DNA of 28,734 bases from Dehalococcoidia bacterium (GCA_021296015.1 JAGWBG010000001.1:1-28734), one strand, 5' to 3'. Numbered from the stretch's first letter, positions 929 through 8,275 are shown. Notes: generated by a model not told the origin, from the sequence alone. Program-made: numbers and translations.

Positions 929-1591
929 ATGGCAGTACCAATAAGCATCCTCCCTGGCAAATTTCGATGGCTGGCTTTGGCTTTGGGCCTGTCGGTGGCC
1001 GCTGCTCTGCTCATCAGTTGCGGCAGCGAAGCACCCGCTACCGACACGCCAATGCCTCGCCCAACCTCCACACCGGTTGACCTTGGCTCCTCTACGGAAA
1101 CTCAACAGCCCACAGCGGTGCCTGCGCCCACCTCACCACCTATCCAAACGTCGTTGGAGGTGGGGCACGAGGTGGGACAGAAGGCCCCGGATTTCATGCT
1201 GACCACAGTGGAGGGTGAGCAGGTTACCCTGGCCAGTCTCCAGGGCCGTCCAGTAGTCCTCTACTTCTACGCCACCTGGTGACCCGTCTGCCGTGCCTCG
1301 TTGAGGCAACTGAAGAACGTCCAACCTGAATACGCGGACCGCGTGGGCTTTCTTGCAGTGGACGTAGACCCTTCGGAGAGTGCCGAAAAGATCCTGTCTT
1401 ACAAAGAGGTCGAGGGATTCTCGTGGCCCATGACCACTGCTGATGCTGTCATGGTGAAAAGCTATAACGTCACTCGTCAAGCTGCCCATGTGACCCTCGA
1501 CTCCAACGGCATTGTCCTGTCAAGTGTCACCTACGGAAGCGAGACCGCAGAGGATTGGCGACAGCTTTTCGAAAGCCTGCTCGGCTCCTGA
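929..1591 (+). CDS. Lipoprotein thioredoxin-like redoxin (TlpA/AhpC-TSA family), probable selenoprotein (Sec118, UxxC), 220 aa
   Basis: ORFs 929..1282 and 1301..1591 are in the same frame and separated only by TGA 1280-1282: YFYATW-U-PVC aligns with the (F/W)ATWCxxC motif. Lipobox LISC, Pro/Thr-rich linker, and GQKAPDF motif. Confidence 0.85.
1294..1308 (+). promoter_or_regulatory. Candidate bacterial SECIS hairpin of the redoxin gene
   Basis: Perfect TGCCTC-GTT-GAGGCA stem-loop. The loop begins with G(U) 17 nt after the UGA, consistent with the bacterial SECIS consensus. Confidence 0.6.
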
Positions 1592-1656: not shown

Positions 1657-2085
1657 CTATCCCGCTACCTCCATCTCGTCCAGAATCTTGGGGGCTTCCG
1701 TCAGCGTCCTGTGTACCGGACACCGTCGGGAGATTATCAGTAACCTCTGGCGTTGCTCTTCAGTGAGGTCGCCTTTCACAACAATGTGACGGCGAATCAA
1801 GTCCAGCATCGTGTCGTCGTCTTCCTCGCACTCCTCACAGTCCCGTGCGTGCACTCGATCATAGCTCAGGTCTATGGTGACCCCATCCAGAGGCCAACCC
1901 TTTCTCCTTGCATAGAGGATAAGGGTCATAGCCGTTCAGGTGCCCAGGGCCGAGAGGAGAAGCTCGTAGGGGTTGGGGCCAAGCTCGTCGCCGTCGTAGT
2001 GGGAATCATCGGCAACGAAAGCGTGGCGGGTGGTGGTGACCAACTGCTGAAGATTGTTCAGGCTTTCGACTCTCACCGTATCCAT
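1657..2085 (-). CDS. OsmC-like protein, probable selenoprotein (Sec50), 142 aa
   Basis: Reads MDTVRVES...GPNPYELLLSALGT-TGA(1936-1938)-TAMTLILYARRKGWPL...RCPVHRTL. TGA occupies the first catalytic Cys of the OsmC GPxPYELLLxALGxCxxMT motif. AAGGAG RBS at 2092-2097. The track ORF 1657..1929 is only the part after the TGA. Confidence 0.85.
1892..1933 (-). promoter_or_regulatory. Candidate SECIS hairpin of the OsmC-like gene
   Basis: On the minus strand directly after UGA: GGCUA/UGGCC, ACCCUU/AAGGGU and UCCU/AGGA stems enclosing a CUAUGCA loop. Confidence 0.45.
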
Positions 2086-8149: not shown

Positions 8150-8275
8150 CACCTTATCCAGAGAGGCAGAGGGAACGACCCTGAGAAGCCGGGCAACCGG
8201 TCGGGGTCATGGCAGATGTCCATGACACGACACGGTGCTAATTTCGGCCCCGAAGGTTCGGGGAAAGATGAGGGG
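8150..8275 (+). promoter_or_regulatory. SAM-I (S-box) riboswitch aptamer
   Basis: CTTATC-AGAG...GAGGG...CCC..GAA..GGCAACC...GGTGCTAATT...GAAAGATGAG; P1 CTTATC/GATGAG; directly upstream of SAM-cycle genes. Confidence 0.95.

Follow-up and report, generated by a model that had tools for sequence, protein, structure and literature searches.

A conserved in-frame UGA, very probably decoded as selenocysteine, in the gene for a putatively lipid-anchored TlpA/ResA-like redoxin of Dehalococcoidia

Analysis of a 28,734-nt stretch of DNA (hereafter the window) from a sponge-associated Dehalococcoidia genome indicates that what looks like a stop codon midway through a gene almost certainly specifies selenocysteine (Sec), and that the two "fragments" on either side of it constitute one redox protein with a predicted membrane anchor. 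The two open reading frames, at positions 929-1282 and 1301-1591, share a single frame and are split solely by the TGA at 1280-1282, as a preliminary description of this DNA had claimed, and readthrough of this codon yields the motif A-T-W-U-P-V-C. On the strength of the comparisons described below, we consider it very likely that the region from 929 to 1591 is a single selenoprotein gene, in which UGA is decoded as Sec and whose product would be a lipid-anchored surface redoxin of the TlpA/ResA-like type. Contig C34, which includes the window, belongs to an assembly that comprises 2.08 Mb in 338 contigs and is 87% complete. Among named organisms its closest relatives are uncultured Dehalococcoidia, and the DNA is met again in sponge metagenomes. 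The component parts of the gene are as follows.

929..1591, plus strand: complete coding sequence with an in-frame Sec UGA; 220 codons, with a TGA stop at 1589-1591
929..1021, plus strand: signal peptide, with the lipobox L-I-S-C at 1010-1021 and Cys31 (1019-1021) as the predicted lipidated residue
1022..1150, plus strand: flexible tether rich in Pro, Thr and Ser, extending to about residue 74
1151..1588, plus strand: TlpA/ResA-like thioredoxin-fold domain, residues 75-220 (from Pfam, AlphaFold2, Foldseek and a profile search against the PDB)
1280..1282, plus strand: putative Sec UGA, which encodes residue 118 at the start of U-P-V-C (from alignment with ResA and with Cys-form members)
1289..1291, plus strand: TGC codon of Cys121, the predicted resolving residue of UxxC (column C47, which does not vary in alignment A2)
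1294..1308, plus strand: SECIS-type hairpin with a 6-bp stem and the apical loop GUU at 1300-1302 (from conservation and covariation)
1481..1483, plus strand: Ala185 (domain residue 111) at the cis-proline position of the thioredoxin fold (from profile alignments)

The in-frame TGA is conserved among relatives. A six-frame search of 40 relatives, representing 30 genera and 17 families of the same order, recovered a homologue in every one of them. Each match between 85% and approximately 31% identity (E < ~1e-23) contains exactly one TGA, and matches free of stop codons begin only at E ~5e-21, where they correspond to other TlpA-like paralogues. In the translated homologue loci the TGA column always reads W-U-P-x-C, and full-length homologues with a single TGA are present in relatives, the codon being kept in 38/38 distinct aligned homologues from more than 30 genera (31-85% identity). 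When 150 more genomes were sampled from the class, 18 strong matches were obtained, 17 of which carry the TGA and the lone exception TGT at the Sec codon. The U residue aligns with TGT or TGC in 27 Cys-form members of the family and in G071. Relatives carry TGA, and not TGY, at this codon, and they retain the downstream hairpin with compensatory changes.

The identity of the codon is also supported by a sequence of separate origin. A 5.5-kb contig from another sponge study (run X2) contains the whole gene at 97% identity, with 16 differences, none of which occurs at 1280-1282, such that this contig likewise reads TGA. Metatranscriptome contigs of a relative that is 88-93% identical span positions 990-1591 including the TGA, although contigs of this kind are not proof of transcription. 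Four runs, all made up of contigs, were compared, and X2 alone is taken as evidence for retention of the TGA, since the other three have low-support differences that were not fully enumerated. Additional sponge-metagenome contigs (X3 and X4) match the gene as far as the W-U-P codons (position 1284), beyond which they carry hairpin variants known from other members; their divergence beyond 1284 indicates that several members of this Sec family coexist in sponge microbiomes.

The genome that carries the gene encodes the components that would be needed to decode UGA as Sec, a point on which the preliminary description depended. It contains selA (1.4e-135), SelB with its characteristic winged-helix domain (2.5e-21), a single tRNA-Sec, which is the sole tRNA found with the anticodon UCA, and selD (6.2e-110), which itself has an in-frame TGA. 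This selD (L004:1531, G000:C45) is itself a putative selenoprotein gene, with the sequence H-C-A-G-U-A-A-K and a downstream 7-bp hairpin whose loop contains G-U. Members of the Dehalococcoidia are among the ten bacteria richest in selenoprotein genes, with 46-49 each (PMC13326102). The terminus of the gene described here is a TGA, and its relatives stop at the same place with TGA, TAG or TAA. Elsewhere, therefore, TGA acts as an ordinary stop, and it has not been reassigned.

Downstream of the putative Sec codon lies the hairpin that had been proposed for this site, TGCCTC-GTT-GAGGCA at 1294-1308, with six Watson-Crick pairs and a GUU loop whose first nucleotide comes 17 nt after the UGA. The published model of bacterial SECIS elements (bSECIS) specifies a loop of 3-9 nt, an upper stem of 4-16 bp and a G within the first two loop positions, together with a location 16-37 nt from the UGA and a minimum free energy of -7.5 kcal/mol or lower (PMC13188914). 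The hairpin fits this model, falling within all four published constraints with its 3-nt GUU loop, its 6 bp, its spacing of 17 nt and its energy of -8.2 kcal/mol; the energy of the surrounding 50-nt region is -11.9 kcal/mol. The surrounding 64-nt region is no more stable than shuffled sequences (z = -0.18), and folding stability was for this reason dropped as an argument. Hairpins of at least 6 bp that resemble bSECIS elements follow approximately 2-2.5% of the TGA triplets in the window, and the loosest, 4-bp version of the model is unspecific, as 58-65% of these triplets pass it. Taken alone the hairpin is weak evidence, and its strength derives from the fact that the TGA, the position of the hairpin and the GUU loop are kept in 38/38 homologues. 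An Rfam scan of the window, which is uninformative in this respect, detected no SECIS family and returned a SAM riboswitch only (SAM-I, RF00162, at 8151-8274 on the plus strand; 69 bits, E = 2.3e-14).

Evidence for the hairpin as a conserved RNA structure comes from an alignment of the 48 nt from the TGA onward in 38 distinct homologues, which contains no gaps. The loop nucleotides G21, U22 and U23 (window positions 1300-1302) are invariant in all 38. G21 occupies a third codon position, and the Leu or Phe codon that follows is UUN in every homologue and CUN in none. Of the 38 homologues, 37-38 preserve each of the pairs 17-27, 18-26 and 19-25, with core pairs exchanged among C-G, U-A and U-G and among G-C, U-A, U-G and G-U, in some cases by way of synonymous Arg codons (AGG versus CGG). 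The covariation score of 0.313 compares with 0.117 for column shuffles (none of 500 reaches the observed value) and with 0.02-0.11 when the 3′ partners are slid. The GUU loop is found in 0/11 Cys-type TlpA-like paralogues of the same genomes and in 0/27 Cys-coding members of the same family, and all three pairs are found in 1/11 and 3/27 of these sequences, respectively. These controls show that the amino-acid sequence alone is not the source of the hairpin. RNAalifold by itself recovered only the three core pairs; the outer pairs vary by clade, and one clade is bulged. Hairpins, though of another geometry, also occur after the other candidate Sec codons of this genome, namely those of selD, of the neighbouring OsmC-like gene and of a further TlpA-like paralogue.

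Two explanations that dispense with Sec were weighed against these data. The TGA could be a real stop, whether in a pseudogene, between two small genes or through an assembly error, which would leave a 117-residue fragment devoid of the active site. Public gene callers do split the gene, as had been anticipated, with N-terminal fragments alone on record, and a TTG at 1301 offers a possible start for the second reading frame. Nevertheless, the TGA occupies one column in 38 distinct homologues, both halves are under purifying selection, and the independent contig also has TGA. Moreover, the fold is complete only across the TGA, and termination at that codon would deprive the product of the entire CxxC helix. 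A genuine stop seems exceedingly improbable. Alternatively, the UGA might be read through without Sec, either by near-cognate insertion of Trp or Cys or under a reassigned code, and this would equally give an open frame. Such decoding is hard to reconcile with the use of TGA as an ordinary stop in this same gene and its relatives, with a full Sec machinery in which the sole tRNA with a UCA anticodon is tRNA-Sec, and with the placement of the codon exactly at the catalytic Cys, followed by a bSECIS-fitting hairpin that is absent from the Cys forms; we accordingly hold it to be highly improbable. Decoding of the UGA as Sec is the reading that we adopt in what follows.

The N-terminus of the predicted protein consists of basic residues and a hydrophobic core followed by the lipobox L-I-S-C, and is joined to the folded domain by a tether rich in Pro and Thr. 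Both elements had been noted previously, and they hold up on inspection, with Cys31 as the candidate lipidation site and the tether extending to about residue 74. A lipobox, comprising a small residue and then Cys, is kept in nearly all homologues, and the tethers of relatives are alike in composition and variable in length. A fragment of LspA occurs at a contig end of the assembly that carries the gene. Lgt was not found in this 87%-complete assembly and is present in 5/5 close relatives.

Two Pfam families match the domain that follows the tether, AhpC-TSA at 2.1e-19 (70 bits, cut-off 26) and, likewise above threshold, Redoxin at 2.4e-17. Their matches take in residues 82-198, on either side of the TGA. 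SCO1-SenC scores above its threshold as well. When a profile of 35 family members was compared with the PDB, Bacillus ResA was retrieved at 1.7e-21, with U aligned to the first Cys of CxxC, which bears out the assertion that the TGA falls on the nucleophilic Cys of a WCxxC motif. An AlphaFold2 model of residues 75-220 (pLDDT 94.4, pTM 0.89) has the Sec just ahead of helix 1, which spans 45-55 in model numbering. Foldseek comparisons of this model gave ResA structures with TM scores of 0.84-0.89 and rmsd values of 1.2-1.5 A (for 4nmu, 0.88 and 1.3 A), with Etrx1/2, SdbA, StoA and DsbE among the further top matches and peroxiredoxin-type entries far lower. The features that distinguish TlpA-type proteins are thus recognizable, in that the fold has the N-terminal hairpin and central insert, and W-U-P-V-C stands in place of W-C-x-x-C.

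Reviews of prokaryotic selenoproteins list three matching groups of predicted UxxC proteins, among them "Prx-like thiol:disulfide oxidoreductase" (PF00578, UxxC/UxxU; representative WP_010940744.1) and "Redoxin family protein" (PF08534) (PMC13188914, PMC9312934). Since the rule applied in the field is the combination of domain and Sec motif, the gene belongs with the known UxxC redoxin selenoprotein groups, and UxxC thioredoxin folds are, as had been stated, a recognized selenoprotein class, one that is already catalogued. The protein resembles the PF00578 group in that AhpC-TSA is its best domain, in its UxxC motif, in its immediately downstream SECIS element and in the truncation of its members by gene callers; the present clade differs in its predicted lipoprotein anchor and in being centred on Dehalococcoidia. 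It is also similar to the TlpA-like and Redoxin UxxC groups, as these are described, in its TlpA-like fold, its Redoxin score and its UxxC motif. No NCBIfam model reaches its cut-off, the best being a ResA subfamily at 67 bits against 170, and the entries in protein databases are truncated, half-length N-terminal pieces, apart from a single weak match to a Cys protein of full length. The gene thus lacks an annotation, yet it does not represent a new kind of selenoprotein.

More specific relationships were also considered. NCBIfam NF041054, the "ResA-like WAxxUGC motif-containing protein", is likewise a ResA-like selenoprotein but differs in its Sec motif and its length, and membership was rejected at 27.6 bits against a cut-off of 300. 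Assignment to the peroxiredoxins sensu stricto was rejected because the protein has A-T-W-U in place of P-x-x-x-T-x-x-C and has no Arg at the cis-proline position. Similarity to ResA, CcmG (DsbE) and TlpA (1st9, 4nmu, 2b1k) extends to the fold and the place of the motif, and to a membrane anchor and outward-facing location that are predicted here. Unlike these proteins, the one described here has Sec for the nucleophilic Cys and Ala, Ser or Thr for the cis-proline (P-T of ResA), and its gene is not beside cytochrome c maturation genes. The lipoprotein-anchored, TlpA-like surface domains of Streptococcus pneumoniae Etrx1 and Etrx2 (4hqs, 2yp6, 4hqz) are matched at TM scores of 0.77-0.82. Those proteins are Cys enzymes that draw electrons from CcdA-type proteins, whereas no CcdA-type partner is encoded beside the present gene.

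The family departs from ResA and TlpA at the cis-proline, the residue that faces the CxxC in thioredoxin-fold oxidoreductases. The corresponding position is occupied by Ala, Ser or Thr (Asp in one case) in 35/35 Sec forms, usually within the context Q-S-T-K or Q-A-A-H. Proline is also absent from 27/27 Cys forms of the same family, which derive from Dehalococcoidia and several archaeal lineages, for a total of 62 members checked. It is kept in 21/21 other Cys TlpA-like paralogues and in 31/33 lower-scoring relatives where the column could be aligned. The cis-proline is more conserved than CxxC, is probably part of the substrate-binding site and may prevent metal binding, and peroxiredoxins carry Arg at this position (PMC2757866). 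Because the cis-proline of ResA, TlpA and CcmG is missing, we assign the protein to the TlpA-like fold and to the UxxC selenoproteins, not to ResA, TlpA or CcmG proper, and disulfide-reductase activity can be proposed only by analogy. Thus, the earlier proposal of an extracytoplasmic Sec redoxin stands as regards the selenoprotein, and there is less certainty in classing it as an ordinary disulfide reductase of the TlpA type.

The protein could therefore be a genuine selenoprotein that is not a disulfide reductase, such as a peroxidase resembling GPx or Prx or a Sco-like protein with a metal- or metalloid-binding site. The replacement of proline by Ala, Ser or Thr (Asp once) in all 62 members while other TlpA-like proteins keep it, at a position that may block metal binding and that differs in peroxiredoxins (PMC2757866), is in keeping with such a role, as are the Pfam results, in which AhpC-TSA is the best match and SCO1-SenC exceeds its threshold. 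Furthermore, the Cys-type TlpA-like proteins of congeners already stand beside ccmH-ccmF and a CcdA-like gene. Set against these points, the fold and the W-x-P-x-C motif are nearest to those of ResA and TlpA and not to those of Prx, GPx or Sco, there is neither a Prx-type Arg at the cis-proline position nor a Sco-type CxxxC, and no conserved neighbour is related to metal handling or peroxide. We regard a non-reductase function as possible, albeit at a rather low probability. The most likely activity of the Sec protein would be extracytoplasmic thiol-disulfide or oxidant reduction.

The genomic context contains no conserved neighbour that would suggest a substrate. The gene is solitary, separated by 286 nt on its upstream side and followed by an OsmC-like gene in convergent orientation, and a scan for promoters and terminators found one weak site of each, no more than in shuffled sequences. 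The neighbourhood of cupin, OsmC-like, SDR and hydantoinase genes is common to one of two congeners only, and in a comparison of 17 loci no neighbour was recurrent. The idea that the gene and the OsmC-like gene constitute a fixed "selenium redox module" is therefore unsupported. The OsmC-like gene (1657-2085, minus strand) has an in-frame TGA at 1936-1938, within A-L-G-T-U-T-A-M-T, and the 55 nt behind it fold into a strong stem-loop (-18.9 kcal/mol); "OsmC-like protein" is a listed selenoprotein family. At the level of conserved neighbours we found no link of the Sec gene to cytochrome c maturation, to Sco or oxidase genes, or to a CcdA/DsbD donor.

Searches with the Pfam models DsbD_TM and VKOR gave no match in the 87%-complete genome carrying the gene or in its genus. 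Congeners encode two further TlpA-like proteins, both of the Cys type. One resides in a ccmH-ccmF cluster, and cytochrome c maturation is therefore apparently served by a Cys enzyme. The other adjoins a polytopic membrane protein whose Cys motifs resemble those of CcdA and which scores 25.9 bits against the Pfam DsbD_TM cut-off of 27.1 and gives no hmmscan match. This CcdA-like protein (L115:310-1203 on the minus strand, and also L118 and L119) has 297 residues with two P-C / G-C motifs and is encoded beside the Cys-type TlpA-like lipoprotein. It occurs in both congeners and was not found by protein search in the 87%-complete assembly carrying the Sec gene. It may represent a divergent electron conduit missed by standard family searches, and is a candidate for the electron donor. 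As the other TlpA-like proteins apparently cover cytochrome c maturation, the Sec protein probably does something else, and it would be a third, independent surface redoxin.

These observations can be combined into a proposed mechanism. The UGA at 1280-1282 would be decoded by Sec-tRNA(Sec) delivered by SelB, as suggested by the conserved signals around the codon, with SelB recruited by the hairpin at 1294-1308 through the G-U-U loop 17 nt after the UGA, and the TGA at 1589 would act as the true stop. The product is predicted to be exported and lipidated at Cys31, and its Pro/Thr-rich tether would hold it on the outer face of the membrane. There, Sec118 would serve as the attacking nucleophile and Cys121 would resolve the resulting intermediate, giving a selenenylsulfide cycle.

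The relationship between Sec and Cys forms was assessed with a maximum-likelihood tree of 82 domains, in which the family lacking cis-proline is separated from relatives that contain it with a support of 99/93. Mapping the Sec label onto this tree requires at least two changes. Nine Cys forms from Dehalococcoidia constitute a clade that is nested inside the Sec forms, behind several well-supported branches, which suggests a reversal from Sec to Cys after duplication, and both Sec and Cys forms are present in some genomes. Given that one SECIS design is found in all Sec forms, the simplest reading of these sequences would be that Sec arose once and that a duplicated copy later changed from Sec to Cys, a reading that depends on the outgroup rooting. 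What is new here is the family-wide loss of cis-proline in both Sec and Cys forms and the nesting of the Cys clade inside the Sec forms.

Several related loci extend this description. Cys-coding members without cis-proline were identified in Dehalococcoidia (L142-L150, L155) and in archaeal metagenome-assembled genomes (MAGs; L149-L171), the latter from Thaumarchaeota/Nitrososphaerota, Nanoarchaeota/Woesearchaeota and Methanosarcinales. At three loci of genus g9 (L018:715-1932 on the minus strand, L019 and L022), a single uninterrupted frame contains a pair of TlpA-like domains, both of which have a TGA and this same hairpin, and these loci appear to encode a tandem fusion lipoprotein with two Sec residues and a Pro/Thr-rich linker. 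The genome that carries the present gene also contains a second UxxC TlpA-like candidate selenoprotein (L112, G000:C271), with a TGA at 461, the motif F-W-U-T-Y-C and the hairpin CAGCTC-GGG-GAGCTG 21 nt after the UGA; L111, which is of the same type, keeps the cis-proline.

We tentatively raise the idea, to which we attach a modest likelihood, that these proteins constitute a distinct, uncatalogued family. It would be defined by [YF]-F-x-A-T-W-[U/C]-P-x-C together with Q/T-S/T/A-S/T-K replacing the cis-proline loop, and would unite the Dehalococcoidia members, which are mostly Sec forms, with the archaeal Cys forms. Its open site might accommodate non-disulfide chemistry involving peroxide, metals or metalloids, and its history would include a Sec-to-Cys reversal after duplication and tandem two-Sec fusions.

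A literature search yielded no paper linking selenoproteins with sponge Chloroflexi. In public records, the gene and its relatives exist only as truncated fragments that lack the active site, an annotation that the present analysis repairs. As such fragments are all that is recorded and no NCBIfam model recognizes the family, the selenoproteomes of sponge-associated and other Dehalococcoidia are under-counted. The gene would add a surface-exposed selenoenzyme to a lineage that is among the most selenoprotein-rich of bacteria (PMC13326102). Finally, the combination of cis-proline loss with near-exclusive use of Sec in the bacterial members provides a natural test of the roles of proline and selenium in the chemistry of the thioredoxin fold.
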